This document shows, piece after piece, positions 12,359-34,427 of a stretch of DNA of 64,000 nucleotides. Both the position numbers and the translations under genes were made by a program. Under the pieces are notes generated by a model. That model was not told the DNA's origin, ran no database searches, and saw only the letters and a list, made by a program, of their open reading frames with translations. Numbering within the stretch: the first letter of the stretch is position 1; each line of letters starts with the position of its first letter. The stretch is from Escherichia coli (GTDB lineage Bacteria > Pseudomonadota > Gammaproteobacteria > Enterobacterales > Enterobacteriaceae): assembly GCF_003334385.1 (NCBI RefSeq), contig NZ_QOWN01000018.1; one strand, written 5' to 3'.

Positions 12359-13516
12359 TTAACGGGCTGGTGCTTTATCGTTCTCACGCTTAACAACCGG
12401 TTTACCAGAGAACAAAAACTTCAGTAACGGGATGCGCAAATGAATTTCATACAGAATTATCGCAATCCCTACTACAAATATCAGGCCACAGAGAAAACCA
12501 AGCCAGTTGGAGGTGATGTGCGGTGTAATGTATGCGCCGAAAAACAGCGTTAACGGGTGGTGAACCAGATAGATAAACAGCGATGCGTTAACAAAATAAG
12601 TCACCCGCGCTGACTGGAAGTTAAGCAAACGGTGGCCAAAGGAGAAGACCACATTCACCATCCACAGACCGAGGACCATGGTGATCACCGACTCGGTTTC
12701 GTACATCCAGGCATCGCCACTGCCATAGCGCTGGTTGAGTAAATAAGCGACAAACGCCAATGCTGCTGCAAGGGTACAGCCACGAGACGGCGTGGTAAAC
12801 AAGGCTTTAAGATGAGGGAAAATGAAAGCCAGTGCGCCGAGGATAAAGAACGGCAAATAAAACAGCGTTTGCATGACAATAAAATTGAACATGCCATTAC
12901 TCAGAATGGGCGGATACACAATAAAAATCGTTCTTCTTATTACCGCATAACCGATGCCGAGGCATAAAAAAATCACCGATAGTTTTACCATCGAGAATTT
13001 TTTATTCGTTTTATCAGAATTTTCTAAATTATTTCTGATGCGCTTAAATATCCATACGCACAGCGTCGTCATGACCACTAACACCAGTAAAAACCACAGG
13101 TGTGATATTAATTCCCAGGCCAACGTATTATATTTGTCATACAATGACAGCCCAGGCCAACTTTCCGCTTTTCCTTTGACATATTGCAGCATAATAAATT
13201 GCGGTAATGTCAGTAGGGGGATGGCTGTTAACATCGGGATACCTACACGTTCGACACGTACTTTCCACCATTTTTTCAAGGGATAGCGTAAAAAAAGCAT
13301 GTAGGAAAAGTAGCCGGATATAACGAAAAATACCTGCATGCGGAACGAGTGGATGAAGTCATTAAAAAGGGTCAGCCACAATGATGATTCGGCGCTATTC
13401 ACATGCCATGTATGGCTCGAATAGATTAAAGAAATATGAAAAGGTATCCCTAACAACATCAGCCAGGCGCGGATGGAGTCGAGGAAATATTCACGTTGCG
13501 CGGGTACTGGGTTCAT
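12359..13516 (-). CDS. opgC: osmoregulated periplasmic glucan succinyltransferase OpgC
   Basis: 385-aa multi-pass membrane acyltransferase-3 family protein. Confidence 0.9.
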
Positions 13517-13798
13517 ATATGGTTAACTAATCTCGGATTTTTCGTCTTATCCCTGTCGGGTTATGCCTTTAGGCTTGTTGCCATAGTGACACCGACCTGA
13601 CCGCGCCAGGCGCAGGCTTCAAGGTTTTTATGCATAGCATCATCGCTACCACTAACCAGAATGGAAGCGTCTGTAAGACGGTTGATAAATAAATTTGCTG
13701 GCAAACCCTACACGAAGTCGATGCTTCTGTCTTTAGGAGAAGCACGGAAAGTGAAAACGGTTGCAATCAGGTGCTTAATCCATGAGCCAGCGTGCTGA

Positions 13799-17981
<4,183 letters not shown>

Positions 17982-17989
17982 AAACGTAG

Positions 17990-18091
17990 TTGCCTGATGC
18001 GCTACGCTTATCAGGCCTACATCGTTCCTGCAATTTATTGATTTTGCAAGACTTTGTGGGTCGGATAAGGCGTTCACGCCGCATCCGGCAA
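17990..18091. repeat. REP (repetitive extragenic palindromic) elements downstream of opgH
   Basis: GCCTGATGCGCTACGCTTATCAGGCCTAC and GTCGGATAAGGCGTTCACGCCGCATCCGGCA palindromic units. Confidence 0.8.
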
Positions 18092-18153
18092 AAACAACGA
18101 GCCAATAAAAATACCGGCGTTATGCCGGTATTTTTTTACGAAAGAGGTATCAA

Positions 18154-18381
18154 ATGCGTTTAATTGTGGTGAGCATCATGGTGACCTTGCTGAGTGGCTG
18201 TGGCAGCATTATTAGTCGCACTATACCGGGGCAGGGGCATGGCAACCAATATTATCCCGGTGTGCAATGGGATGTGCGTGACTCCGCCTGGCGTTATGTC
18301 ACGATCCTTGATCTGCCATTCTCTCTGGTTTTTGATACTTTACTGCTGCCGATCGACATTCATCATGGCCCGTATGAGTGA
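18154..18381 (+). CDS. yceK: putative lipoprotein YceK
   Basis: 75 aa with lipobox LLSGC. Confidence 0.88.
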   Translation: MRLIVVSIMVTLLSGCGSIISRTIPGQGHGNQYYPGVQWDVRDSAWRYVTILDLPFSLVFDTLLLPIDIHHGPYE

Positions 18382-18756
18382 TTAACGTTCATCCCACTCA
18401 TCAGCTGCTGCGCGTCCTTCCTCGGTATCCAGCGGTGGCTCAAGCTGAAATTCCCCCTCGTCCCATTCATGTAATGTATTCTCTTCCTGCCACTCCTGGC
18501 GTATCTCTATCTCATCATAGTCGCCATCAAAAACACTTTGCGCGGCTTCACCGCTAAGCATAGGTAAACATTCACCTTCTTCCCCTTCGTCGGCAAAAAA
18601 CTCAACTTGCCACATGATGTCGCCGTCCTGCAAAACGTATTTTTGGGCATTGAACTGTTGCACATTCGCATCTTCGGCGTCGATGCCGGGGTTGTCTGCA
18701 AGAAATTCTTCGCGTGCAGCGTCAATGGCTTCTTCAAGCGTTGCGTACATGGTCAT
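18382..18756 (-). CDS. msyB: acidic protein MsyB
   Basis: Highly acidic 124-aa protein starting MTMYATLEEAIDAAREEF. Confidence 0.9.
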   Translation of the reverse strand: MTMYATLEEAIDAAREEFLADNPGIDAEDANVQQFNAQKYVLQDGDIMWQVEFFADEGEEGECLPMLSGEAAQSVFDGDYDEIEIRQEWQEENTLHEWDEGEFQLEPPLDTEEGRAAADEWDER

Positions 18757-18838
18757 CACGATTCTCCCTTTGAGTTGATGAGGTTTCAGGGAAAAGGATA
18801 GCTGATTCTCCGCTTTTGCAAGTATGAAAGGCGAAAAA

Positions 18839-19887
18839 TCAGTTCGATACCTGGGGTATTCGACGACGACGTAGACTGTTCCATGAATAGACTGCGTTGA
18901 ATAACACTACGCCAGCGGTGACGAGAAATACCGCTCTGAAACCGTAGTTCGCTGAAATCGCTGCTCCCATCAATGGTCCGGTAACGTTGCCAATATCACG
19001 AAACGATTGGTTATAGCTGAAGATACGCCCGGCGATCTGGTTGCTCGAGTTGTAAACCAACAGTGTCTGTACGGCGGGGAGTAGTGCACCATCGGCGGCA
19101 CCGAGCAAAAAACGTAAAATCCCAAGTTGCAATGGCGTCTGAACGTAAGACATTGGGATCAACAGCAGTACAGAAAAGATCAGCGCTGTAATCAGGATCT
19201 TTTCGGGTCCGATTCGATCGCCAAGTTTGCCGAGTCGTGGTGCACTTAGCAGAGCCGCCACGCCTGGCACCGAGGCGATCATGCCACTGATAAAGGCGAC
19301 GTTACTGACGTTACCCGCCAGTTCGCGGACATACAGCGTCAGAATGGGGGCAATTGAGCCCGTCGCCACCTGGATGATTAACGTAGTGACAAACAGGCTG
19401 AGTACCAGTTTCGGGTTTTTAAGTGATGTCACCACTTCCCGCATGTGCAGCATCTCTTTTTTGCTGACCGGCTGGAATTTTTCTCTGATGCAAAACAGGG
19501 TGACGAAAAAGCAGAGTATGAGCACACTGGCGGTAATAAAGAATACCGGACGTAAGCCGTAGCTATCGGCGAGCAGGCCGCCAGCCATTGGGCCGAGCAA
19601 CGCACCACTAACGCCGCCTGTGGAGAGCGTACCCAGCGCCCAGCCGCTTTTATTACGCGGTACTTGTGTGGCGATAAGAGCATTAGCGTTGGGGACAAAT
19701 CCGCCAAGTAACCCAAGAAGCGCCCGCAGGATCAAAAACTGCCAGATATTTTGTGCCAGCCCCATCAACACCATCACGATGCCCATGCCGAGGGCAGAGC
19801 GTAATAGCATGAGTTTTCGGCCTTTACGGTCGGCGAGTCCACCCCAAAACGGTGAGGCGATGGCCGAAAATAAAAATGTAATGCTGA
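18839..19887 (-). pseudogene. mdtG: mdtG 3' fragment (C-terminal about 350 codons of MFS efflux transporter MdtG), separated from its 5' end by the inserted element
   Basis: Reading frame of the 323-aa ORF continues upstream without an ATG to 19887, where MdtG-like sequence (..[17 protein letters not shown]..) is interrupted. Confidence 0.85.
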
Positions 19888-20289
19888 TATTTGTTCCCTA
19901 AATACACCATGAGAACATACCTGTTAATAACAGGACAATATCAGGTGAATGATTATGCAATTCAACGGTGTTTTTCCAAGTATCTAAGCAGTTTTACACA
20001 GATTCTATGCAGTATCGGTATAGTCTCTTTTTAGCATAACTTATTGATATCTATAAAGAATCTGTGAAGTCTCTTTTCAGGGTAAACTGTATCGTGTTAG
20101 TCGTCCCTCTCTCGACTCCTAGAAAAGTGCTATATACAGGGCTATATAACGATATATAGATAGTTGGTCACATGGTGTAACTATCAAGAAACTTAACGAT
20201 TTCCTACGTGAAAGTTAGAAAGTGATGGTTATAGTTACCCTCCTAAAATCTTCATAGCTCCTTCATAACCAGTCTTAAAAGGACTTCCT

Positions 20290-20404
20290 TATGAGACACT
20301 TTCAACGTAACGGTAGAATGCACCTTCCAAGTGTCTCATAAGCTTGTTTTTGAATTATGAGACAGCTAAACTTATGAGACCAACTTTTGAGACTTCTTAG
20401 GGGG
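20290..20404. promoter_or_regulatory. res-like cluster of resolvase-type half-sites (TGTCTCATA, matching TGTCYNNTA) overlapping the promoter of the small serine recombinase gene
   Basis: TATGAGACA at 20290-20298 and inverted TGTCTCATA at 20332-20340; further direct copies at 20357-20365, 20373-20381 and partial at 20387-20394, ending just 5' of the RBS/ATG at 20409. Confidence 0.55.
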
Positions 20405-20408
20405 ATGT

Positions 20409-20957
20409 ATGGCGGTGATTGGTTATTGCAGGGTATCAACACAAGACCAGACTGTAGACAACCAGAAACTACAGATAGAGAAGGTTCACAAGGTCGATAA
20501 ATGGTTTATTGATGAGGCTGTCTCAGGAGCTACAAAGGCCACCAGCAGAGATGGTTTTAGAGACATGATGAACTATGTAAGGTGTGACGATACGTTAGTT
20601 GTGGTAGCTATTGACCGTTTAGGGCGTAATACCGTTGATGTGCTCTCTAACGTGGAGGCACTACAGACTAAAGGTGTGAGGGTTGTTTCTCTACGTGAAG
20701 GTTTCGACTTATTAACACCAATCGGTAGAGCAATGCTTACTATGATGGCTGGTTTAGCTGACCTTGAAAAAGACCTTATCAGTGAACGTAGAAAGGCTGG
20801 TATTGAACGTGCTAAAGCTGAAGGGGTTCACATGGGGAGACCTGTAAAAGCTTCTTCAGAGACTGTAAAGATGCTTATCTCACAAGGTAAAACGAGGTTG
20901 CAGATTCAGGAAGAGCTAGGAATCTCTAGAGCAACTTATTACAGACTTGCTAAATAA
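20409..20957 (+). CDS. small serine recombinase (resolvase/DNA-invertase family) with C-terminal HTH
   Basis: 182 aa; N-terminal catalytic motif VIGYCRVSTQDQ (active-site Ser), resolvase core, C-terminal HTH LGISRATYYRLAK; RBS GGGGGA upstream. Confidence 0.85.
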   Translation: MAVIGYCRVSTQDQTVDNQKLQIEKVHKVDKWFIDEAVSGATKATSRDGFRDMMNYVRCDDTLVVVAIDRLGRNTVDVLSNVEALQTKGVRVVSLREGFDLLTPIGRAMLTMMAGLADLEKDLISERRKAGIERAKAEGVHMGRPVKASSETVKMLISQGKTRLQIQEELGISRATYYRLAK

Positions 20958-21300
20958 GTTACTGAATAGTTACATGGATGTAGCTGATATTTGGCTTTTT
21001 TGCAAAGGGGGTCACATAGCTGGTGTGACGGGTACTTAGCAGGTATAGACCTGTGATAGATATTTTCGAAGATTCGGGGAAGATGAGATTCAAAGAGGGC
21101 TAGTCATTTTTTATAAAAATTTTCAGAATCTGAAAAGTTACTGTACAGAATATATACAGACATCTTTAAAGTATCTGTAAAGACTTTTAAGATAAAAGAT
21201 AGATATCCAGAAAGGATATCCGTTTAGAAAGACTGTTAAGTATCTCTTAAAAGAGAGTAAACCTTGTCAATAGTGATTGCAATAAAAATTTTTATTTCTT

Positions 21301-21963
21301 ATGTCAATTGAGCATATTTTAATCGGGAAGCATCATGGGGGTTCTGATTACTGGAGAACTCCATTTTTGTTATTTAAGAATCTAAACTGTGAATATATTT
21401 TCACGCTGGATGGTGCTGCAACTAAGCACGATACGTTATTACCCCGCTTTACGGATGATATTCACAATCAATCGTGGATTGGCGAAAGGGTGTTCTGTAA
21501 CCCGCCGTACAGCGATATTCCGTCGTTCCTCATAAAAGCGTCTGAGGCAGATTTAGCGGTATTCCTGATACCGTATAGAGCCAACACCAGCTACTGGCTT
21601 AGGCACATTTACAGCAATAACCACTGTCATGAAATCCGTATTCTTCATCGTGCAGTTAAATACCTTCCACCAGCAGGCCATAACGGGCTTACTATTCGTT
21701 CACCGTTTCCAAGTGCAGTCATTGTTTTTAAAAAAGAACCACGCAGGCATGAAATTACGCAGATGATTTGCTGTGCTGATACATTGCTACCGTTAACCAT
21801 CATTAACAGAGGAGGCTTAAGAGGAAGACCCACCATTTACCCACCTGAGACGCTCGACAGCTTCATAAAACTATACAGGCAAGGAAAACCCATTAAGTGC
21901 ATTGCAGATGCTCTCAGAATGCCTCTGAGCACGTCATACAGGATTGCGCAAAGGTTGAGCTAA
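21301..21963 (+). CDS. phage-type DNA N6-adenine methyltransferase (Dam/T1-like family) with C-terminal HTH-like extension; orphan (no cognate nuclease recognised)
   Basis: 220 aa; motifs DYWRTP, FTLDGAA and catalytic CNPPYS (NPPY), ...FPSAVIVF; extra C-terminal approx 70 aa with HTH-like segment. Confidence 0.75.
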   Translation: MSIEHILIGKHHGGSDYWRTPFLLFKNLNCEYIFTLDGAATKHDTLLPRFTDDIHNQSWIGERVFCNPPYSDIPSFLIKASEADLAVFLIPYRANTSYWLRHIYSNNHCHEIRILHRAVKYLPPAGHNGLTIRSPFPSAVIVFKKEPRRHEITQMICCADTLLPLTIINRGGLRGRPTIYPPETLDSFIKLYRQGKPIKCIADALRMPLSTSYRIAQRLS

Positions 21964-22325
21964 AATTCTCATAAATATGGTCATTTACAAGACAGGTGAT
22001 TCAGATATTAAGAAGTATCCCTGTGAACAATAAATGACCAATCAGTAATTATTCTGTGAAATAATTGTTGCAATTTATAATCACATCTGTTATAGTTTCT
22101 ATATGGGCTGATAAAAAAGTTCATGTCTTGAAGTGGTAACACTTGGGGAGGTGTCAGATGGTTGGCGTATAAAACCTCTCATTCATGGTATACCTCAGCG
22201 TTTTAATCATCGTACTGTTTCAGGCATGGACTTCTTTATCAGTCCATCAATCCCCCAGATATTTTAATCACACAGGCTAATCGGTTTTATCCGGTTGGCC
22301 TTTTCACATATGAGGTATTTTATGA

Positions 22326-23294
22326 ATGAAAAAAGAAACTAATGCTTTTATTATGGTAGATAAACGAGTTGCACAATTCCCTAAAACATTAAAGCCAATT
22401 GACCGCTTGGTATATTTCACTATGCTGGATGGTGCTGATTATTACGAATCTAAGTTCGGGAGATATGCACCAAGTATTGACTATTTGATGGTTATGTCTG
22501 GTGCTACACGTAATACAGTTATTGACTCTCTGAAAAGACTTGAGTCACACAGGCTTATTGAGAAGACCAATATCAAAGGGCAGCAAAGTATTTTTAAAGT
22601 ATTCACGTTAGATGAGCGTCCAGAAGTCTTATCAGAACCTACCCTTGATGAGCGTCGTAGAGTCAAATTATCAGGTCAACCAGAATCTGACACTAACCCA
22701 ACCAAAAATTGGTTACCTACCCAACCAGAATTTGGTTACCTACCTAACCAGAAATTGGTTACATGTAATACTGAATATAAAGACAAAAATATAAAAACTA
22801 AAGAAGAAAGACTAAAAGGGAACTTTGAAGAAGAATCTCTTAAGAAGGGAGCTTCGCTCTGTGATTCACATGAATGTGATATTAAAGAAGATGACTTTCT
22901 TTCTTTGGATGAATTAAATGATTTTCTCTCTATGAATGAATCTGACCTTGATAGTGAAGCTACTAAAGAGGTCGTTAAAAAGGAAGATAAAATCTCTGAT
23001 GTGATTGCTAGTAGTGACCATAAAAACACACAGTGCCCCGCCACTGATGATGAGATGGACCCCTTCGATGATGATGAAGAGGATGAAGAGTCAGAACGTG
23101 AAAAAGCCATTAAGAGGGTAGAGAAGAAAAAGAGATTCGAGCTTGCAAGACAAAAGAACAAAGTATCGGGTTTAGACCCATTCGATGACAGTGAAGATGA
23201 TTATTATCTTTCACCGAGAAAGAAACAAACCCAGGATGACAAGAAGCAAAAAATTAAACCGAAGATGTATTTTGCTGGTGGAGGTATGCGCTAA
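22326..23294 (+). CDS. putative replication initiator (winged-helix N-terminal domain, acidic C-terminal tail) with origin-like iterons embedded in its coding sequence
   Basis: 322 aa; N-terminal winged-helix-like region; internal DNA iterons plus AT-rich tract resembling the lambda O/ori arrangement; C-terminus very rich in D/E. Confidence 0.55.
   Translation: MKKETNAFIMVDKRVAQFPKTLKPIDRLVYFTMLDGADYYESKFGRYAPSIDYLMVMSGATRNTVIDSLKRLESHRLIEKTNIKGQQSIFKVFTLDERPEVLSEPTLDERRRVKLSGQPESDTNPTKNWLPTQPEFGYLPNQKLVTCNTEYKDKNIKTKEERLKGNFEEESLKKGASLCDSHECDIKEDDFLSLDELNDFLSMNESDLDSEATKEVVKKEDKISDVIASSDHKNTQCPATDDEMDPFDDDEEDEESEREKAIKRVEKKKRFELARQKNKVSGLDPFDDSEDDYYLSPRKKQTQDDKKQKIKPKMYFAGGGMR
22676..22820. 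repeat. Origin-like iteron array (3-4 direct repeats of about 23 bp, each containing the palindrome AACCARAAWTTGGTT) followed by an AT-rich tract
   Basis: AACCCAACCAAAAATTGGTTACCTAC / CCAACCAGAATTTGGTTACCTAC / CTAACCAGAAATTGGTTACATG at 22695-22765, partial unit at 22677-22693, then AT-rich 22766-22820. Confidence 0.65.
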
Positions 23295-23584
23295 TGAGAG
23301 AATATAACGGTGAAAAACGATACAAAGATTATCTATTAAGGCGCTACAGCATTTCTCGTGAAGGTCATCTTCTGAAAGATACTCATGGGGAGGTTTACCG
23401 GATTCGACCGAAGAAGGAAGGAAAGAATTATTTCTTTTTTGATGGTGTGACAGATTTAAAGATTGACGCTTTGAGGTTTGCAGTGCTGTATCATTATGAT
23501 ATCTGGGATTCGGTCCACCAGCTACGATTAAAAGACGGTGACCCCGGTAATCTGAGGGCCACCAATATCATCACAAAACGTTAG
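23294..23584 (+). CDS. small protein, possibly degenerate HNH/NUMOD-like; function unknown
   Basis: 96 aa; start overlaps stop of upstream gene (TAATG); C-terminal segment LRLKDGDPGNLRATN loosely resembles HNH_3-type motifs. Confidence 0.4.
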   Translation: MREYNGEKRYKDYLLRRYSISREGHLLKDTHGEVYRIRPKKEGKNYFFFDGVTDLKIDALRFAVLYHYDIWDSVHQLRLKDGDPGNLRATNIITKR

Positions 23585-23903
23585 TTTGTTTTACCATCAT
23601 CAATCGTAATTGTGATTTCATATTTGAAAAGCTTAATGCTGAAATTGAATCGTGTACTTTTGGCGATAATCATTTTTAAAAGCTGATACACCAGAAGCAC
23701 CAGAAACACAAAGCAACCTAAGCTTGCGAATCTGTGAGATTCAGCAATTGTTTCAAGAAAGCCCATTAATTCCCCTTATTTATCAAAGGGAATGACCTGT
23801 ATCAGCCCCTATAACCATAATATCATGTAAATGAGATGTTGACAATATGTTAAATAAATGTTAAGATTGTAGTATGAGTAAGAGATTTAAGGAGATTTTT
23901 ACA

Positions 23904-24194
23904 ATGACTCACACAGTTACGCGCCTTTTGCCAGAGGCATTTGAACGACTGGCAGCAATCAAAGCCAAATACCCTGATATGAAGCACACGGCGCTTGTTG
24001 GAGAGCTTTTAAAAGAGTCGGTAGCCCTGACCCCTTTCGATAACGTTAAGGGCGTTGCAGAGGGTTCTAAGGCCATCAGAATCACAACAGGCCAACTGGA
24101 ACTACTCAAAGCGCAGTCCGCAGTAGCAGGTTGCTCAATGATTCAGGTGTTAAGCACTAAGGTTCATCAACTGGCGGATAAATTGGAGGTTTAA
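23904..24194 (+). CDS. hypothetical protein, possible ribbon-helix-helix DNA-binding regulator
   Basis: ORF track 23874..24194; the internal ATG at 23904 is preceded by RBS AAGGAG; predicted beta-strand/helix pattern (TVTRLLPEAFERLAAIKAK). Confidence 0.45.
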   Translation: MTHTVTRLLPEAFERLAAIKAKYPDMKHTALVGELLKESVALTPFDNVKGVAEGSKAIRITTGQLELLKAQSAVAGCSMIQVLSTKVHQLADKLEV

Positions 24195-24580
24195 TGTATG
24201 ACTTTTATAAACATCGTGACCATTTGGTAAGATTTGACGGTAGAGTCTGGAAAGACATAACAGAAACCAATAAACCCAAGTTTACCCACCAGCAATTAGC
24301 CTCAAGATTTGATATCTGGACTGAAGCACAAAAAGATAATGGTGATTTCGAGTTTATCAGGGGTTTTGATTATGCTTACGAAGATGACCTTAAAGACGCC
24401 ATTAAATTAATTGAAAATTTTAATGGAAATAATTCTGGTGACAAACACAAAGCCAATGGTAATCGGTATGACAGGGAGTTAATTCTTGATGCCATTTCCA
24501 GAGGTCAATCACAAAGTTATATTTCTGAGAAATACGGCTTATCACGTAGTCAATACTACAAGATTAAAGCGTCTGTGTAA
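24194..24580 (+). CDS. hypothetical protein with C-terminal HTH (regulator or terminase-small-subunit-like)
   Basis: 128 aa; start coupled to upstream stop (TTAATG) with RBS GGAGG; C-terminal HTH ISEKYGLSRSQYYKIKA. Confidence 0.5.
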   Translation: MYDFYKHRDHLVRFDGRVWKDITETNKPKFTHQQLASRFDIWTEAQKDNGDFEFIRGFDYAYEDDLKDAIKLIENFNGNNSGDKHKANGNRYDRELILDAISRGQSQSYISEKYGLSRSQYYKIKASV

Positions 24581-24717
24581 GCCTGTGAGAATGAGTGAGA
24601 CTCAAAGATGAGCTACCCTATTACTAAGGTGTCTCACTCCCTCTGTAACCCGCATGGTTACTGGCCTCAGAATGGCTATTTTGGCAGATTTAAGATGTGT
24701 TTTAGAGGAATTTAAAA

Positions 24718-25041
24718 ATGAACAACTTCCCATTACAAATTTTCGTTGATAACGACACCGCTCTGATGATTCAGGCTTTCACTGATTCCGGTGTATCAAT
24801 TGACTTTGACAGGCTGTTAGAGTTGATGGCTGATAATGCAGAAAACATCTCTGACTTTATTCAGTCGGTGGAGTTTAACGAGCCTCGAATGATGCTACCA
24901 ATTAAAGACAGCAACATGAAAAGATTGGTTATCGAGCAAACGAACAAATACAGCGTTAGCCCTGAAAGATATCTCAAGGCAGCTATAGCAATTTTGTGCG
25001 CTGACAATATTTTGGTGACGGATTCGAAGGTGGTGCATTAA
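24718..25041 (+). CDS. hypothetical protein
   Basis: 107-aa ORF with RBS AGAGGA; no recognisable motif. Confidence 0.45.
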   Translation: MNNFPLQIFVDNDTALMIQAFTDSGVSIDFDRLLELMADNAENISDFIQSVEFNEPRMMLPIKDSNMKRLVIEQTNKYSVSPERYLKAAIAILCADNILVTDSKVVH

Positions 25042-25118
25042 TGGGCTTAATAATTGCTTGGACAGCTTTGGGTTTATTTGTTGGTTGCTGGGTAGGTAAC
25101 ACAGTAAATAAGAATTGA
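25041..25118 (+). CDS. candidate small hydrophobic peptide (25 aa, single predicted TM helix), translationally coupled to upstream ORF
   Basis: ATG overlaps upstream TAA (TAATGG); encodes MGLIIAWTALGLFVGCWVGNTVNKN; below the size cut-off of the ORF track. Confidence 0.3.
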   Translation: MGLIIAWTALGLFVGCWVGNTVNKN

Positions 25119-25535
25119 TGTTGCCAATCTGTTAAAAAGCTGTTGACAAATAACCTTAAGCATGACATAATTTTAATTATGGGAGAGTAATTCTCTCTTA
25201 TATTTCTTTCAATAATCCGATGGATGGATGGATATTCTGAGTTGGTGAGGTATGTTCTATACCGAACATTCTGAAAGGTGCAATGCTTTTCGCTACATGA
25301 CCTCTTATATAACCTGAGAGGTCATCTCGAAAAGTACTCTTGTTCATTCGTTATTGAATCCTTTAGATGTTTTAATTTCTTCACCTTATGAATAGCCCTT
25401 TATAAGAAATTATCTAGGGCTATTCAGTTTTTAAAAAGCATACTTGGCAAACCGCCTTTTAAGTCTCTTCTAAGTTCGTAGGCTGTCAGGTGTGCTTTTT
25501 AAAAACTGAATATACTTAGAAGAGGAAATGAAATA

Positions 25536-26246
25536 ATGGCAAATGACATTTATATTAGTGGAAGAAAAATTGATAGCTTCGGTGACTGGTCGCCACAGAC
25601 TGAACATCCAGCTATCGTTATTCAGCGTAAAGAACACGATGCGAGAATTGAGCTTGAGCAAGAGCTAAAGATGTCACCAAAGCAAATTACCTTTGTGTCT
25701 CCTGAGCCTCAAGAGATGCCTGATGTATGCAAGAGTGAAGCATTGCTTGAGCTTGAAAAGAAATATTTCCCAGCTTTAAAAGCACAGCGTCTTAGATTAG
25801 ATGACGCTTACAGCAAAGTTACCCTGATGCAATCAGCTATTGAACCGTCAGAATTTGAGATTCAGGATGAATTGTCACAGAAACCATTTGTTTATTACCA
25901 ATATGCAGACAATGATGGTTTTGGTACTTTTCCTGAGAATATCCCAGACGCGATTAGTAGTCTTCCTGATGGATATCGAATTGTGAAGATGGTTAAAGCT
26001 TCAAGGGGTGCTGGTCAATTTATTTATATGACCAATAAGAGCGATGAAGAACTCGCTGAACTTGCTAGACAGAACATCTTGGCATCACGTAACAAGCAGC
26101 TTGATAGTGCTAAGTTGTATCTCTCAAGAGAGCTTCAGGCTATGAAAGAGCTTGTTAGTGAATATGAGTCGCAGAAGAAGATTGCTATGCAAGCTGATAT
26201 TGAGCAGTTAGTGAAGATTTCTCAGAAGTATAGTAAAGCACTTTAA
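25536..26246 (+). CDS. hypothetical protein with C-terminal coiled-coil
   Basis: 236-aa ORF with RBS GAGGAAA; no recognisable catalytic motif. Confidence 0.5.
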   Translation: MANDIYISGRKIDSFGDWSPQTEHPAIVIQRKEHDARIELEQELKMSPKQITFVSPEPQEMPDVCKSEALLELEKKYFPALKAQRLRLDDAYSKVTLMQSAIEPSEFEIQDELSQKPFVYYQYADNDGFGTFPENIPDAISSLPDGYRIVKMVKASRGAGQFIYMTNKSDEELAELARQNILASRNKQLDSAKLYLSRELQAMKELVSEYESQKKIAMQADIEQLVKISQKYSKAL

Positions 26247-26270
26247 TTATGAATTAAGAAGAGGTGATTA

Positions 26271-26480
26271 ATGTTTGAAGAACGTTTAGAGACTATTCGG
26301 TCTGTTTGTGAAAACTTAAAGTTACAAACCAAGCCAGCCTTAAGAATTAAAACCAAACATCAAATTATCACCTCACACAAACCAAAAACACGCAAGATTC
26401 CAAAGTGGTGTATTGACCGTATTCCTTCTGATGCTCAAATCATAGGTGAAACGGAATTACATTATCTTGTCCGACATTAA
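26271..26480 (+). CDS. hypothetical small basic protein
   Basis: 69-aa ORF with RBS GAGGTG. Confidence 0.4.
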   Translation: MFEERLETIRSVCENLKLQTKPALRIKTKHQIITSHKPKTRKIPKWCIDRIPSDAQIIGETELHYLVRH

Positions 26481-26577
26481 AAATTGGTTGGGTAAAATCA
26501 ACGGGAGAGATTATCGAGTGACATCGGTAGTTTCTCCTTTTTTTGTATATGAACACTTAAGAGGTGAAAAAATATGA

Positions 26578-28749
26578 ATGGCACAGTTTAAAGTTGATGA
26601 TTTTCTGATTGAGCTAGGTTTTAACTCTCAGAGGGTTTTAAAAGGTCTGGAAAAAGCCGAGAAACAAACGATGCAGGTAGCATCACGAATTGAGAAGCGA
26701 TTGAATAAAGCTTTTAAAGTTAACCCTACGCCTTTAAATGATTCTCTCAAGGTCATGGAAAGAAATGTCGATAAAACTGTTTCCAAGATTGAGCAGCGTC
26801 TTAAAAACACTAAAGCGTTTAAGATTAAAACGGAAATTGAGGATACTTTAAAGCCACTTAAACAACCGAGACAGCCACGAATTAGCGGCAACAGAGCAAT
26901 CACAGCAGCACATAGTGTGAATATGTCTAAGCTTGGTGATATTAATCCGCTGATGGCTAAAATGTTTAAAGCACAGTATTACAGCTTAAGCGGTAAGGCT
27001 GGTAATATTGGAAGTGAAAAGTTTAACGCTGAACTTGCAAAATTAAATCAATCTCTTCGTGAAACGTTGAATAAACTCAGGTCACAGACAAAGACCGCCA
27101 GCATCAGCAAAGTAAATGATTCCTTTAATAATCTTGCAAGCAATGCAATTAAGTTATCTGGTGCATTTTACTCTGTGATGGGTGCTCTTAACGCTTACAA
27201 GGCCATTATGAATGCAGGTCTTAAACGAGATTCCGCACAGAGAGCCGCTAAGTTTGTACTTGGTGATAAAGCATCTGAAGCTGAAACATTTATCAGGGGA
27301 CTGGCTGACAAGACAGGTCTTAATATCTCTGAAGGACTATCAAGCTACGCTAAGTTTGCAGCAGGTGCTCAGGGTTCTATGTCACAGGAACAGACACAGG
27401 AGCTATTTGGTAATGCAACGGCTATGAGCCGTTTAATGGGGCTTTCTAACGATGAACTAAACGGCATTTTGAAAGCTTTTGAGCAGATGGCTTCTAAGGG
27501 CAAGATTCAGGCTGAAGAATTACGTGGGCAGTTAGGTGACCGTATGGCTGGTGCATTTAAGCTATTCGCTGAAGCATTGGGTATGACTGCTACAGAGCTT
27601 GATGCAGCCATGAAAAACGGGAAGGTACTTTCCGCTGATACTCTCCCTAAAGTCGCTAAACAGATGGGCTTGATGATTGATAAAGCGGGTGGCTGGGCTG
27701 AAGTCGCTAAGAGCACCCAGACAGCTTTAGGTAAGTTAGCAAACAACTGGGATGATACGATGGTTAAAATCTTCTCAGGTTCACAGGATGAGTTAAACGG
27801 CTTCTTATCCAGCCTGGGTAGCCTGCTTAGTGAAATGGGGATGAGTTCTTCTATCGCTGGTGATGCTATCGGTGGACTTATCGACATGCTTAAAGCTGGT
27901 GTAGATGATATTCGCGTATTCAATAACACCATTGAAGGCTGGATTTTACAGGTTAAAAAGTTCTATTACAGCCTTGATGACACTAAACGAAAACTACTTG
28001 ATGAAGTCGGTGATGGTTTTATCAATTTTGTCAAAGGTCTTGCTATAGCGTTATCTGCAAAGACGCTATTCAGTGCCACTACAGGGGTGATGAACCTGAC
28101 AAGAGCAATCACAACGTTAGGTACAAGAGCTAATCAGGTGGCTGGTCAGGTAACTACTGGTAAAGGTGGTGGAAAACTGAAAGGTGTAGCTGGTGGTGTA
28201 GGTAGTGCTCTTGCAATTGGTTATGCTGATGACGGTTATGAAACAGCGTTAGCATTAGCTTCAATGATTCCACAAATCAGAGGTGTCACCCTTGGTTTAT
28301 ATGCATTGAAGAAAGCACTGGATTTTATGAATCAGGAAGTAGTCAAAAACGCTAATATGCATCCATCTGGGGTAGGTGTGGGTAGTGACTTTAATCCTGT
28401 GTATTCTGGTGACCCTAATAAACCGAATATGATTAACGAAGGATGGAGTAAAATTTTTAATTCAATGGGTGAATTGTTTAACAATGCCACAATGAATATT
28501 GCAAGATTCAATCATCCAGAATTAAACAACATTAAGCAAGATTCAGCATTAACGAGTGCAGATATTCAGAGTCTGAGGGATGAAATTAGTGCTTTGAGTA
28601 AACGTATTCAGGAGCCTGTGAAAGTTTCACTTGGTGGTGAAGTTGCCATTAAACCAGATGAAACCAGCTTTATGACCTTTAGCAGTAATATCTACGACCA
28701 ATATGCAGAAGCTACGCTATTAAGTTCATCATTCCCAGAAGATGATTGA
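26578..28749 (+). CDS. phage tail tape-measure-like protein
   Basis: 723 aa; coiled-coil N-terminal part; segment AEELRGQLGDRMAGAFKLFAEALGMTATELDAAMKNGKVLSADTLPKVAKQM resembles the conserved tape-measure N-terminal domain; Gly-rich middle. Confidence 0.65.
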   Translation: MAQFKVDDFLIELGFNSQRVLKGLEKAEKQTMQVASRIEKRLNKAFKVNPTPLNDSLKVMERNVDKTVSKIEQRLKNTKAFKIKTEIEDTLKPLKQPRQPRISGNRAITAAHSVNMSKLGDINPLMAKMFKAQYYSLSGKAGNIGSEKFNAELAKLNQSLRETLNKLRSQTKTASISKVNDSFNNLASNAIKLSGAFYSVMGALNAYKAIMNAGLKRDSAQRAAKFVLGDKASEAETFIRGLADKTGLNISEGLSSYAKFAAGAQGSMSQEQTQELFGNATAMSRLMGLSNDELNGILKAFEQMASKGKIQAEELRGQLGDRMAGAFKLFAEALGMTATELDAAMKNGKVLSADTLPKVAKQMGLMIDKAGGWAEVAKSTQTALGKLANNWDDTMVKIFSGSQDELNGFLSSLGSLLSEMGMSSSIAGDAIGGLIDMLKAGVDDIRVFNNTIEGWILQVKKFYYSLDDTKRKLLDEVGDGFINFVKGLAIALSAKTLFSATTGVMNLTRAITTLGTRANQVAGQVTTGKGGGKLKGVAGGVGSALAIGYADDGYETALALASMIPQIRGVTLGLYALKKALDFMNQEVVKNANMHPSGVGVGSDFNPVYSGDPNKPNMINEGWSKIFNSMGELFNNATMNIARFNHPELNNIKQDSALTSADIQSLRDEISALSKRIQEPVKVSLGGEVAIKPDETSFMTFSSNIYDQYAEATLLSSSFPEDD

Positions 28750-28905
28750 TTTAACGGTGTTCTACGTGAATAAAGCAAAGTTAATACCCGCACTAAAAAT
28801 TATTTTTTACGTAGCACACGCTTAACAGAGAAAATACTTATATATCAAAGGCTTGGTTAAAAATGATTAAAATACACTAAGCCTTTGAAATCAAAGGAGA
28901 ATTTA

Positions 28906-29694
28906 ATGATTTACTCTAATCAACTTCGTTACAGTGGCAAAGATGGTGTTTACTTCCATCTACAAGGCCAACCAGATAATTTCTTGTCACTATCAGCAAC
29001 AGAGAACATGGAATTTGACAGCCCTATGATGGTGACCACTCAAAATATGCAATCAGGGCAGACTGTAACAGATAATGTAATGCGTTCACCCAGAACTATT
29101 TCAATCAGTGGTGTGGTTGTAGTTGGTGAATCCGGTAGTATCCTCATCTCAAGAGATAATAAGCTGGTGGAAAACTTCATCGACACTCTTGAAAGCTGGC
29201 GTGACCAGAAGCAAATTATTTCGGTCATCTGTAAAGACGGAATTAAAATTGATGATTCTATTATTACGAGTTTTAAAGCCTCTAAAGATGTTGGTATTTC
29301 AAATGGTCTAAGAGTCCAGCTAACTTTTCAGGAAATTAACTTTAAAGCAATTGTAGGGCAAACTGATGTTTCAGCAGCTACTGGCAAAGCTGCCACCACG
29401 AATGACGGTGGTGTGACCAGTAAGAAGAATGCAGGTAACGTGACCACTGAACGCAATAACGCGCCTATGCTATCGTGCAAAGAGTTAATGAATATTAGCG
29501 ATGTATCCGGTTACGTTCCGGCTATCAGAAATGATATTCTCGATGCTCAGATTAAGTGCAATAAAGCTTGGAAGCTGGACTATTCAGACTTAACAGAAGC
29601 TGAAAAAACCAACGTCACCAATGCTAATAGTAACGCTGGTCGAGTAGCTTCAAAGCTTAAAAAGTACTCAGTGAATCCTAATAAGAGATACTAA
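28906..29694 (+). CDS. hypothetical protein downstream of tape-measure gene (possible tail-associated protein)
   Basis: ORF track 28885..29694; ATG at 28906 preceded by RBS AAAGGAGA; gene order after the tape-measure gene. Confidence 0.45.
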
Positions 29695-31220
29695 ATCTCT
29701 ACTACATCAACATCTATTAAACCCCTCTCAGTGACTTCAGAAAGCGACTGTATAGCCTCTGTAACGTTGTCTGAGGGGTTTTCTGTTATAGGTAGGTCAA
29801 TTACCTTGCCGTTGTGAAAAGTCACTTTACAGCGACGTTTAGCGGCATCTATAACTATTTCTTTGAGTACGCCCTTGATAAGTAGCTGTGTCTCTATCAT
29901 CCCTTCCTTTGTTGTCCTGTCAATATCTTTGAGGCTTCCAGTTGTGATGGCCTTTATCCGCTGTGTTTCCTCTTCGATATCATGATTGAGTTTTGATAGC
30001 GCATTCTTCATATCACGTAATTTCTCTGTGATAATTGTCATGTCATCGAGTTCAATAGCGAGTTCTGCCATTTTTGAGATTTTACGCTGCAAATCTTCAC
30101 GCTGTAATTTAAGGCTATCAATAGTGTCAGTATTTTCAGTTTCAAAACGGTCGCATAATGCGAGCATGTAGAGAATAGTTGCATCCGTTTGCTTACGACT
30201 GATAGCCTTTGCACTACACCTGTTAGCTGAACGATTAGGGCATCTGTACATCCCAAAACGTTTTAAGGCATATCCACCAAGAACAATAGTAGCCCCACAC
30301 TCAGAACATTTGATGATACCCCTGAACAAGTTGACTGATAGCGGATTACTTGATACAGAAGCCCTACCATATTGCCCTGTGTTCAGTTGCTGTACTCGAT
30401 AGAATAGTGACTCACTGATTATTGCGGGGTAGTAACCCTGAACTTCTTCACGTCCAGCAGGTGTGAAACATCCAATCACAGCACGATTTCTGAGTAGTTT
30501 CTTTACAGCAGTATCAGACCACCCCTTTTGTTTGGGTGTGTATTGATTCAATGACAAGTGGCCTTCATCGTTTAAAGTTCTGGTGATAGCCCAAAAGCTT
30601 AAACCCTGTAATCTCAGGTCAAATGCTCGTTTAACAACTTCCACTTTATCGGGGATGATAGTGAATGTTCGACGGTCATCATTCAGCCTTAACCATGCAG
30701 GACAACGCCTAGATACCTTGATACCTTCGGAGATGAGTTCTTTTTTACGGTTCCATGCAGCTTGGACACGCTCAGACTTCCTCAGACTTTCCTCATGCGC
30801 CCGCTGCATTATCAGAATGCTTTTAATCAGGGATAACGGGTCTTTTAAACTTTCTCGTGTGTAATGTTCACCATCGGACAGGGTGACTACATCTACACCA
30901 GCCCTTAAGATACGGCGTAATAGCTCAGAAGCAATATCAATATCCTGACGTGACAGACGGTCTAAACTCTCGATTAGTAGCGTATCACCAGCTTTAACAA
31001 GCCCTTTCTCGATAGCGGTTAGAAAGTCACCTAGACCACCTTTCAGGTGCTTACCACTAAAAGCACTTTTCCCCAAATCTTTAAAGCTCAAGGATGAATC
31101 CAAGTAAAACTCAGGGTTCTTATCAAGCCAGTCAGTAACCAGCTTAGATTGTCTGCGTACAGAGTCCCCTTTTAGTTGTCGTTCACTTGAAAATCTGATG
31201 TAGCTGATTGCCCGTCTCAT
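29691..31220 (-). CDS. large serine recombinase (serine integrase)
   Basis: About 510 aa; N-terminal resolvase-type catalytic domain ([12 protein letters not shown], active-site Ser), recombinase domain, zinc-ribbon-like Cys cluster (CSECGATIV...CPNRSANRC), C-terminal coiled-coil; first ATG at 31220, track start at 31226 is TTG. Confidence 0.88.
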
Positions 31221-31243
31221 ATTCAATACCTAAAATGATGTGT

Positions 31244-31441
31244 TTAGGAACCCATTATACTGAAGACAATACCGGACCACATATTCAGGGCGGAGTGACC
31301 GGTAACGCCAAGCTGCTCAACGTAGAGGGGTAAGAAGGGCATTACCAGACTGAAGGCGGCACCGGTAAGAAAACAGCCTAGCCAGGCGACGATCAGGTTT
31401 CGTTTCCAGTTTATAGGGGTGTCATTTTCACAGGGTGACAT
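31244..31441 (-). pseudogene. mdtG: mdtG 5' fragment (N-terminal 58 codons of MdtG fused to 7 element-derived codons before a stop)
   Basis: Starts [16 protein letters not shown]... as MdtG; sequence diverges at the junction near 31260. Confidence 0.85.
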
Positions 31442-31612
31442 AGCAATCCGCTGTTGGTGCGCCAGGCGCGGTGAACATAAGAAGAAAAGATAAGCACACT
31501 AATTATGCGCCCGACTTCCAGGGGGCGCAATCCAGAGAGCTTTTATCGCTAAATCAGGGGGATTTGCTGTGGTAATGCCGGATGCCATTCTGAAGCATCC
31601 GGCATGGGAGAT

Positions 31613-32533
31613 TTAATAGCGTGAAGGAACGCCTTCCGGGCGTGTTTTAAAGCGACGGTGTAACCACATATACTGCTCTGGTGCCATCATGATGCATTTT
31701 TCGACCACTTTGTTCATCCACGCGGCGGTAGTTTCGGCATCATCCAGTGGCGGAGAACACTCTGGCGGCAGCATAATCAATTGATACCCTTTGCCATCTG
31801 GCTTACGGCGTGGAACGAAGGGCACCAGACATGCGCCGGACATCCGTGCCAGCATCCAGGTTCCGGTCGTGGTCGCAGCCTGCTCAACGGCAAACAACGG
31901 GACGAAAACGCTTGAGCGCGGGCCGTAATCATGATCCGGTGCGTACCAGACCACTTCGCCTTTTTTCAGGGCTTTAATCATGCCTTTTAAATCTTTGCGG
32001 TCGAGCATCGATTTATTTGAGCGCAAACGGCCCCAGGTTTGTAGCCAGTCAATCAGTGGATTATCGTTCGGGCGATAAACGCCAATACCCGGTTCCTGCA
32101 TACCAAACTGCCGCGCACCCAGCTCCAGTGTCAGAAAATGGATGCCAACTAACAGGATGCCGCGTTTTTGCGCCTGCACGTCACGAATGTGTTCCATGCC
32201 GATCACTTCCGTCCAGCGGGCGATTCGGCGGTCCGGCCAGAACCACGCCATGCCGGTTTCCATCAGGCCCATGCCAACGGATTCGAAATTCTTCACCACC
32301 ATTTTACGGCGTTCTTGTTCGCTCATTTCCGGGAAGCACAGTTCCAGGTTGCGATGCACAATTTTTGCGCGTCGTTTCATAAAACGTAACGCCAGTTTTC
32401 CTAATCCACAACCGAGGCGGTAGATAACCGGGTAGGGCAATTGCACGACTAACCAAAGTACGCCAATACCCAACCAGGTTAACCAATAACGCGGATGAAG
32501 CAGTGCGGTGGAGAACTTGGGTAGATTCGTCAT
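31613..32533 (-). CDS. lpxL: lipid A biosynthesis lauroyl acyltransferase LpxL (HtrB)
   Basis: Start trimmed to [17 protein letters not shown] (306 aa). Confidence 0.93.
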
Positions 32534-32757
32534 ATCAATCCTGTTTTTCAACCTATTCGGGCAATTGTATGTATTGTCGCATTTTTTCGCCCGCAACCAA
32601 AATTTGTGGCTGAAGACTGGGCGAAATTGCCGCGCTTGTAAATAACAAATAATTTTTAATGCGCAAATGTAGCGTAAAATGTGTGGATGTTAATTATCGA
32701 TAATTGCTATATCATGCCGCGGATTTTTACTTTCCCATCTCGCAGGAACCGTACACC

Positions 32758-33810
32758 ATGCCAGTGTTACACAACCGCATTTCCAACGACGCGCTAAAAG
32801 CCAAAATGTTGGCTGAGAGCGAACCGCGAACCACCATTTCGTTTTACAAGTATTTCCACATCGCCGATCCTAAGGCGACCCGTGACGCTTTATATCAGCT
32901 GTTTACCGCGCTGAATGTTTTTGGGCGAGTGTATCTGGCGCATGAGGGCATTAACGCGCAAATCAGCGTACCTGCGAGCAATGTTGAAACATTTCGCGCG
33001 CAGCTCTATGCCTTCGACCCGGCTTTAGAGGGTTTACGCCTGAATATCGCGTTGGATGATGACGGGAAATCCTTCTGGGTACTGCGCATGAAGGTACGCG
33101 ATCGCATTGTTGCCGACGGTATTGACGATCCTCACTTTGATGCCAGCAATGTTGGTGAGTATCTGCAAGCGGCGGAAGTGAACGCCATGCTTGACGATCC
33201 CGATGCACTATTTATCGACATGCGTAACCACTATGAGTATGAAGTGGGGCACTTTGAAAACGCGCTCGAAATTCTGGCAGATACCTTCCGTGAGCAGCTG
33301 CCAAAAGCAGTCGAGATGATGCAGGCACATAAAGATAAAAAAATCGTCATGTACTGCACCGGCGGCATTCGTTGTGAAAAGGCCAGTGCCTGGATGAAAC
33401 ATAACGGATTCAACAAAGTCTGGCATATCGAGGGCGGAATTATTGAATACGCCCGTAAGGCGCGCGAGCAGGGCTTGCCGGTGCGTTTTATTGGCAAAAA
33501 TTTTGTTTTTGACGAGCGGATGGGCGAACGTATATCGGATGAGATTATCGCGCATTGCCACCAGTGCGGCGCGCCGTGCGACAGCCATACCAACTGTAAA
33601 AATGATGGCTGCCACCTGCTGTTTATTCAGTGTCCAGTATGCGCGGAAAAATACAAAGGTTGTTGTAGTGAGATTTGCTGCGAAGAAAGCGCGTTACCGC
33701 CAGAAGAACAGCGACGCCGTCGGGCAGGACGTGAAAATGGCAATAAGATCTTTAATAAGTCTCGTGGACGTCTGAATACAACACTGTGCATTCCTGATCC
33801 AACAGAATAA
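32758..33810 (+). CDS. trhO: rhodanese-domain tRNA uridine(34) hydroxylase TrhO (YceA)
   Basis: Start trimmed to [16 protein letters not shown] (350 aa); rhodanese active-site Cys (YCTGGIRCE). Confidence 0.9.
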
Positions 33811-33851
33811 ATATCATTGCCGGATGCGTGCCATCCGGCAACATTTCACGC

Positions 33852-34427
33852 TTACTTCTGCTGTACGCCTTCCACTGAAATAATCAGATCCACTTCCTGA
33901 GAAGCTGGACCTAAATCTGTCTTGATATTGAAGTCCTTGAGCTTAATTTTGCCTTCGGCCTCGAAGCCTGCACGTTTACCACCCCATGGGTCGTCGCCCT
34001 GACCAATTAATTTCGCTTCCAGCGTGACGGGTTTGGTTACGCCATTCAGCGTCAGATCGCCGGTAATATCCAGTTCGTCACCGTCTTTCTTCACGCTGGT
34101 GGAGGTGAATGTTGCCTGTGGATATTTTGCGGTATTGAGGAAATCTGCACTGCGAAGATGTTTATCGCGTTCGGCGTGATTAGTATCGACGCTGGTGGTG
34201 TTAATTGTCACATTCACTTTATCGGCAGCCGGATTTTTTTCGTCAAAGGTAAAAGTACCGTCGAAATCTTTAAAGGTGCCGTATAACCAGCTATAGCCAA
34301 GGTGCTGGATGCGGAAATTAACAAAGGCGTGCTGACCTTCTTTGTCAATTTTGTAATCGGCGGCAACCGCTGAACCGGCAGAGAACATCAGGGACGCGAA
34401 GGTTAAACCAAGCAGGCTTTTTTTCAT
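33852..34427 (-). CDS. yceI: periplasmic YceI-family protein
   Basis: 191 aa with signal peptide [22 protein letters not shown]. Confidence 0.92.

Follow-up and report, generated by a model that had tools for sequence, protein, structure and literature searches.

What kind of DNA interrupts the efflux pump gene mdtG in this Escherichia coli genome, and how much does the interruption matter? The locus lies in contig NZ_QOWN01000018.1 (assembly GCF_003334385.1), of which a stretch of 64,000 nucleotides (hereafter the window) was analyzed, and mdtG is split there by an insert of 11.4 kb. The original prediction centered on the loss of MdtG efflux function and on a possible new transcriptional input into the neighboring genes msyB and yceK. 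In this work, we found that, very probably, mdtG has been split by site-specific integration and the insert belongs to a phage-related family of site-specific mobile elements. Our favored reading of its lifestyle, namely a satellite or tail-interference island of the Ounavirinae (Felix O1-like phages), is plausible on sequence grounds at slightly less than even confidence. The loss of MdtG as such is ordinary; the element itself is the interesting part.

The mdtG gene is encoded on the − strand, and its outer limits were given correctly in the original prediction (stop codon at 18839-18841, start codon at 31439-31441). Comparison with the intact mdtG locus of K-12 MG1655 showed that the window follows the K-12 sequence up to position 19887 and again from 31260, which places the inserted element at 19888-31259 (11,372 bp). 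Junction alignment revealed the same 4 bp, CTGA, at both borders, forming the attL core (19884-19887) and the attR core (31260-31263) of the attachment (att) site, and deletion of 19888-31263 in silico yields the K-12 mdtG sequence base for base. The crossover corresponds to nucleotides 179-182 of the mdtG coding sequence, at codons Phe60/Ser61, where the core reads TCAG in the mdtG sense. The GC content of the insert is 39.4% (range: 35-44% within the insert) vs 50.4% in the flanks, which have 0 and 2 single-nucleotide differences from MG1655 over 4.9 and 4.0 kb, respectively. An assembly artifact or an engineered K-12 derivative was ruled out by identical natural contigs, namely, the NCBI draft GCA_012738655.1 (identical over 15536-36246 of the window) and the Logan assembly of SRR3823653 (identical over 18071-34232).

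Because the open reading frame (ORF) is split at codons 60/61, no full-length MdtG is possible at the sequence level, as had been anticipated. A functional MdtG is an uninterrupted protein of 408 aa with 12 transmembrane segments (TM) and motif A of the major facilitator superfamily (MFS); the pieces that remain have 65 aa and no more than 323 aa. The 5′ fragment (31244-31441, − strand) is the expected 65-aa ORF and consists of 62 native codons followed by Met-Gly-Ser-stop supplied by the element, and the native upstream region of mdtG (31442-31620) is identical to that of K-12. The 3′ fragment (18839-19887, − strand) extends from nucleotide 179 of the coding sequence to the stop codon (residues 61-408) and is 100% identical to K-12. 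The claim that this fragment lacks a start is correct for the native start, and an in-frame TAG is located five codons upstream of the junction. However, an ATG at 19810 (Met86), the only in-frame start, opens an ORF of 323 aa (18839-19810). The product of this ORF would be without TM1, TM2, and MFS motif A and is predicted not to form a pump. An intact second mdtG, named earlier as the observation that would speak against pump loss, was searched for by tblastn of MdtG, and none was found in the 64-kb window. We conclude that MdtG is, as judged from its sequence, non-functional while the element is integrated. The loss holds for the integrated state but not as a permanent one, since the element is of a type that is predicted to excise without a scar and the two halves of mdtG are undecayed; when the gene was rebuilt from five occupied genomes, no stop codon or frameshift was found and 0-1 amino acids were changed. 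Given these two points and the existence of a circular relative (see below), the loss is probably reversible or conditional. It is best regarded as a by-product of integrase specificity, probably with small phenotypic weight.

The integrase is a putative large serine recombinase (LSR; 29691-31220, − strand) of 509 aa, as counted from the ATG at 31220. It was assigned to phrog_95 and contains the Pfam domains Resolvase, Recombinase, and Zn_ribbon_recom. The N-terminal catalytic domain (PF00239) spans residues 4-160 (E-value 8e-16), and the motifs YIRFSSERQ and LDRLSRQ, which correspond to the Ser nucleophile and the DR..R signature, can be read in the translation. The C-terminal extension of more than 300 aa matches PF07508 (2e-17) and PF13408 (6e-7), with a weak match to the C-terminal domain of the A118 integrase (4kis). 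The length equals that of RefSeq homologs, and the catalytic motifs are kept. The ends of the element are also of the LSR type: the 4-bp CTGA is common to both, long direct repeats are lacking, and the integrase gene is adjacent to the attachment site. The arms of attP are imperfectly inverted (TTTAGGAAC...GTTCCCTAAA), the attP junction of this mdtG-type element is GGAACCCATTATACTGATATTTGTTCCC, and the corresponding attB is AATGTAATGCTGAAGACAATACC.

The same attL and attR were found, to the base, in the four complete E. coli genomes that were aligned (A1, RM9088, NT1F25, and 1428). The combination of the integrase with the mdtG 5′ junction occurs in approximately 20 of the 5426 complete E. coli genomes (~0.4%), and carriers of this junction originated from pigs, birds, dogs, humans, and an echidna; one carrier has an integrase allele that is ~72% identical. 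Furthermore, a divergent element is located at the homologous mdtG point, also with a CTGA core, in another enterobacterial genus (GCA_033726695.1, ABOYLV010000002.1, 3560-14810). Its LSR is 66% identical at the aa level, and the mdtG of its host shares 72-78% identity with the E. coli gene. Because such a divergent LSR sits at the same point in such a divergent host gene, the comparison identifies mdtG as an old and conserved attB with a CTGA core, used by LSRs that are 66-98% identical to the one described here. Our literature search found no paper that names mdtG as an attachment site. The insert of RM9088 contains many insertion sequences (IS). In NT1F25 (locus 13278-17565) and 1428, the same mdtG site is occupied by a 4.3-kb mini insert. 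Retained in it are the left-end block, part of the region that precedes the methyltransferase gene, and the integrase, alongside a different small recombinase and a 227-aa hypothetical protein.

Two tail genes link this element to phages. A tail tape-measure protein (TMP) of 723 aa is encoded at 26578-28749 on the + strand (phrog_4036, 6e-88; PF20155, TMP_3), followed at 28885-29694 (+ strand) by a putative tail tube-initiator protein of the Dit-like type (PF21821), which matches the PDB entry 9ndy_A, annotated as "Tube initiator protein gp018," with an E-value of 1.6e-102. When compared against 50,697 phage records, the element matched only Ounavirinae, the subfamily of the virulent Felix O1-like phages. 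The tube initiator is 66% identical at the aa level and up to 86% identical at the nucleotide level to that of Felixounavirus, and the TMP is 32% identical at the aa level to the TMP of phage Andreotti; the tube-initiator gene follows the TMP gene in the element as in the phage. The phage TMP has 742 aa, vs 723 aa for that of the element. Shared DNA was also found outside genes, in a non-coding stretch at approximately 21160-21240, upstream of the gene cluster of the element, identified by nucleotide matches. Within it, 36 nucleotides are 97% identical to positions 73277-73312 of phage Andreotti, and the 81-nt stretch is matched at 80-82% identity in 253 phage records, all of them Felix O1-like, where it lies in unannotated intergenic DNA. 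The GC content is similar as well (39.4% for the element vs 39.2% for the phage). The other ORFs of the element had no match to phage Andreotti, and no paper describing satellites of Felix O1-like phages was found in the literature. These matches point to a specific link to the Ounavirinae; they are not proof that these phages are used as helpers.

The element is one member of a larger family. Related islands are 10-11.5 kb in size, and the module of TMP and tube initiator is present in 470 of the 5426 complete E. coli genomes; a single genome can have as many as four copies, and none is carried by a plasmid. Elements with the same gene order and integrases that are 35-69% identical are located inside yecE, beside wrbA, and, in the case of a more distant relative, at tonB. 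Both wrbA and yecE are classic integration sites of Shiga toxin (Stx) and other lambdoid prophages, and a lambdoid prophage with a tyrosine integrase directly adjoins the yecE-type element. The tonB-type element, for which sequences were drawn from SRR34520937 (Logan), SRR22802630, and ERR11042405, sits exactly at the tonB start codon with a 13-bp core (CAATGACCCTTGA), such that the tonB ORF is whole but severed from its upstream region. In two independent sequencing runs, the right end of this element was found joined to its left end via the 13-bp core, i.e., as the attP junction. Moreover, one tonB-type contig of 11,280 bp has a 27-bp terminal overlap and closes into a circle of 11,253 bp, the exact length of the element. 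These assemblies indicate that members of the family circularize. Relatives in IMG/VR were considered as evidence for virions and rejected, as they are proviruses excised from isolate genomes.

The remaining gene content is compact, with 12 intact ORFs that all read from left to right (+ strand), except for the last one, the convergent integrase. A small serine recombinase of the DNA-invertase type (182 aa; 20409-20957, + strand) was assigned to phrog_125 (8e-58), with a match to the Mpi-like NCBIfam model below its cut-off. The cassette containing this gene is bracketed by two pairs of inverted repeats (20036-20080/21130-21174 and 20176-20195/20955-20974), of which the outer pair is also present in the locus of strain A1 (3213-3252/4404-4443). 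The A1 cassette carries a different recombinase (35% aa identity) on the opposite strand, and the cassette may be invertible or exchangeable; no inverted copy was found among the loci compared. The next gene (21301-21963, + strand) encodes an orphan N6-adenine DNA methyltransferase of the Dam-like type (phrog_111; PF05869; oMTase in PADLOC), beyond which PADLOC found no defense system in the element. A helix-turn-helix (HTH) protein encoded at 22326-23294 (+ strand) is weakly related to phage replication initiators, with matches to replication-initiator families of PHROG (5e-8, to phrog_270, to 7e-4), a weak Pfam match (HTH_36 only, 0.005), and none in NCBIfam. This Rep-like protein had no tblastn match among the phage records, so there is no sign of phage "odn"-type anti-satellite nucleases that are aimed at it. 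Four small ORFs on the + strand (23294-23584, 23874-24194, 24194-24580, and 24718-25041) had no match in PHROG, NCBIfam, or PADLOC. The region 25536-26480 (+ strand) contains genes for a 236-aa coiled-coil protein (25536-26246) and a 69-aa product, which have no Pfam or PHROG match and occupy the slot of the tape-measure chaperones in phages. The AlphaFold2 model of the 236-aa protein (pLDDT 78) consists of long helices, its fold matches only generic coiled coils, and its homologs are confined to these elements. The label "transposase" given to this protein by RefSeq/NCBI was rejected based on the lack of a Pfam or PHROG family and the predicted coiled-coil fold.

At the right end, the integrase gene is placed behind the 5′ remnant of its target. 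Its ATG (31220) lies 39 nt away from the core at the end of the element and 21 nt past the stop codon that closes the truncated mdtG ORF. Both ORFs are on the same strand, and no terminator-like site was predicted between the mdtG start and the integrase. Because the two are adjacent and in the same orientation, lack an intervening terminator, and have an unchanged upstream region, transcription of the integrase in the integrated state probably starts at the mdtG promoter. A review (PMC12046405, citing Fabrega et al., 2010) places mdtG in the marA-soxS-rob regulon, and we consider co-transcription of the integrase from this stress-inducible promoter the better-supported expectation. The location of attP within ~40 nt of the integrase start would leave the integrated gene without room for a promoter of its own. 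A similar layout of the integrase behind a host gene was found in the yecE-type element and not in the wrbA-type element. A perfect TATAAT is present at 31254-31259 (− strand), where it immediately follows the core at a distance of 31 nt upstream of the integrase ATG. No good −35 accompanies it in the integrated state or in the circle, and it may act as a weak promoter for the integrase or just belong to attP.

The left end consists of a non-coding block of ~330 bp (19906-20200), which alignment and local blast searches found to be conserved whatever the integrase or attachment site. This block contains the only outward candidate promoter of the left end, a sigma-70-like site (TTGGAA-16-CATAAT; 19952-19979, − strand), which matches the consensus at 9 of 12 positions and is partly conserved, with CATAGT in relatives, as well as an extended −10-like sequence, TGATATTGT, near 19943. 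A conserved palindrome (CCTGT-N5-ACAGG; 19920-19934) lies between the sigma-70-like site and attL and is possibly a weak terminator or an operator. A structured RNA in this block was considered and rejected, as the covariation term of RNAalifold was unfavorable. In the integrated state, the outward site faces the mdtG 3′ fragment and msyB (18382-18756); in the circle, it faces the integrase gene across attP. The element genes near the left end all point away from mdtG. Transcripts from the outward site would be sense for the mdtG fragment and msyB and antisense for yceK, which is on the + strand. A pattern scan found no consensus promoter for msyB in 18300-19900, based on which msyB may normally depend in part on read-through from mdtG, and this read-through may have been lost with the insertion. 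Farther along the backbone, Rfam matches to ES036 (47.9 bits) and naRNA4, of which the former exceeds its gathering score and the latter does not, were found at 18013-18138, between opgH and yceK. This site belongs to the K-12-type backbone and is unconnected with the insertion. The Rfam scan of 18000-32500 (E ≤ 1) found nothing credible inside the element, with only small-RNA and REP-type matches in the backbone.

Taken as a working model, the LSR would insert the element into the mdtG attB, and precise removal would restore mdtG. In the integrated state, the integrase would be transcribed behind the truncated mdtG ORF from the promoter controlled by SoxS/MarA/Rob. In the circle, the integrase promoter is expected to be in the conserved left-end block, and after integration this promoter would be aimed into the mdtG fragment and msyB. 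Excision would need a directionality factor, possibly one from an infecting phage by analogy with PLE, the elements of Vibrio cholerae that resemble phage-inducible chromosomal islands. A broader version of this model, which we put forward only tentatively, is that ~9% of the complete E. coli genomes carry members of a satellite family, so far undescribed, that exploits virulent Felix O1-type phages. Under this version, tape measure and tube initiator would come from the members themselves, which would also respond to regulatory DNA of the phage type, and a radiation of LSRs would be directed at the 5′ parts of the host genes mdtG, yecE, wrbA, and tonB. As a consequence of such targeting, a captured host promoter would drive the integrase and the integrase promoter of the element would read into the gene remnant.

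Several known systems provide points of comparison. The PLE that are tied to phage ICP1 are also small integrative islands with an LSR and no full set of virion genes, and they too are linked to a virulent rather than temperate myophage; their own replication initiator may have a counterpart in the tentatively assigned Rep-like protein. The integrase of PLE is already there before infection, whereas the excision factor comes from the phage; an integrase driven by a host promoter, as proposed here, would fit such a scheme. The differences are the host and the helper group; also, the element described here has tape-measure and tube-initiator genes, and no sequence homology to PLE was seen, although no search aimed at it was made. 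Closer to E. coli, Barth, Dunham and Seed (2023; PMC10055350, PMC10448857) describe 224 putative satellites with TMP, baseplate, major capsid protein (MCP), and Dec genes. These mostly have tyrosine integrases at tRNA genes, with a subset having a serine recombinase, and Justusliebigvirus phages are the proposed helpers (PMC10055350, PMC10448857). Both are E. coli islands of 10-14 kb in which genes for a tape measure and a baseplate-type protein adjoin the integrase and a small serine recombinase occupies the opposite end, and virulent myophages are the proposed victims. However, the element described here is linked to Ounavirinae and the attachment sites are inside genes. In one example of those satellites (NZ_CP016828, 4121991-4147251), a tblastn search with all 12 proteins of the element gave a single match, to the small recombinase (45% over 131 aa); no DNA similarity to the element was found. 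Membership in that satellite family (RepA_N, MCP, Dec, TMP, and baseplate hub) was rejected on this basis, the small recombinase being the only homolog in the example tested. Phage-inducible chromosomal islands (PICI) and P4-like satellites share the size class, an integrase, a replication gene (a tentative assignment in our element), and a partial content of structural genes with our element but differ in that no AlpA, Pri-Rep, Sis/Psu/Delta, capsid, or small terminase gene was detected here and in that the helper candidates are virulent. Regarding the split gene, the skin element in sigK and SPbeta in spsM of Bacillus subtilis and phi10403S/A118 in comK of Listeria resemble our case in the insertion by an LSR within an ORF, the short core, and the scarless restoration. 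Excision has been demonstrated for those elements, which serve as switches tied to development or infection, whereas the occupancy at mdtG is ~0.4%.

At 11.4 kb, with its own LSR and with TMP and tube initiator as the only structural genes, the element has the expected make-up of a satellite, and several observations have to be weighed against this reading. The attP junction of the mdtG-type element is absent from IMG/VR and JGI metagenome contigs, no recombination directionality factor (RDF) was recognized among the small ORFs by PHROG and NCBIfam, and several relatives are degraded by IS or cut to 4.3 kb, meaning that some copies are dead. Profile searches also found no capsid, portal, terminase, or other packaging gene among the element ORFs, no packaging site was identified, and the assignment of the HTH protein as Rep-like is weak. 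The first three of these points, along with frameshifts and truncated integrases in relatives, would fit a decayed prophage fragment that is fixed in mdtG and immobile, with mdtG as a permanent pseudogene. We consider such a dead remnant improbable, since all 12 ORFs are intact, including a full-length integrase with its catalytic motifs, and hundreds of genomes preserve the compact gene order across several attachment sites. Furthermore, a relative was assembled as a closed circle, and identical junctions occur in unrelated strain backgrounds with undecayed halves of mdtG. As for the outward site, it matches only 9 of 12 consensus positions, four such sites were found vs 5.7 expected from shuffled sequence, and its −35 is lost in the wrbA-type element. 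A functional outward promoter at the left end is for these reasons rather doubtful. The same applies to the view that a left-end promoter driving the mdtG fragment and msyB in sense, and reading antisense into yceK, is the main effect of the insertion. In its favor are the location of the sigma-70-like site and the extended −10-like sequence within a block conserved across the family, the attP layout, which requires an integrase promoter on the left side in the circle, and the lack of a consensus msyB promoter. The chance-level number of sites, the conserved hairpin after the site, the −35 that is not conserved in one relative, and the absence of RNAalifold support for a structured transcript count against it, and we regard it as unlikely to be the main effect. 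The predicted transcription into the mdtG fragment and msyB is thus a plausible hypothesis, with a candidate site in a conserved block but a number of sites that does not exceed the shuffled count.

Two other explanations give the element a role for its host. The first is a regulatory switch ("active lysogeny"), in which reversible excision would turn the pump gene on when needed. The insertion is intragenic and its precise excision in silico restores the ORF without a scar, the halves of mdtG are intact in five genomes, and the integrase is located behind the stress-inducible mdtG promoter, all of which would suit a switch. However, only ~0.4% of the complete genomes carry the element at mdtG, and its sister elements are found in unrelated genes (yecE, wrbA, and tonB), which argues for integrase specificity rather than host regulation. 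Also, mdtG matters mainly when it is over-expressed, and an LSR alone does not excise. A switch is therefore very improbable. The second is a defense island, in which the copies of TMP and tube initiator would act as poison subunits that derail the assembly of Felix O1-like tails, and the island would be spread by other means. This is consistent with the finding that the only structural genes are two phage-type tail-initiation genes, without a capsid, terminase, or packaging gene, and interference with tail assembly is mentioned in one source as a known strategy (PMC11364771). Against it, PADLOC reported the orphan methyltransferase only, and the integrase, the Rep-like gene, the compact size, and the circular relative fit a mobilizable satellite better. 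Defense as the sole function appears unlikely; nonetheless, the defense and satellite readings are compatible, as PLE does both.

For the biology of E. coli, the loss of one accessory efflux pump in a rare lineage, which is probably reversible, matters little. The locus would be an example of integrase genes that are wired to host promoters (SoxS/MarA/Rob in the case of mdtG), and its family is an example of attachment sites that sever host genes such as tonB from their promoters. More weight attaches to the element itself, as Felix O1-like phages have wide use in typing, biocontrol, and therapy. If the reading as a satellite or tail-interference island is true, approximately 1/11 of the complete E. 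coli genomes would carry a counter-measure against these phages, and the family would provide a tractable E. coli counterpart to the PLE/ICP1 system of Vibrio.

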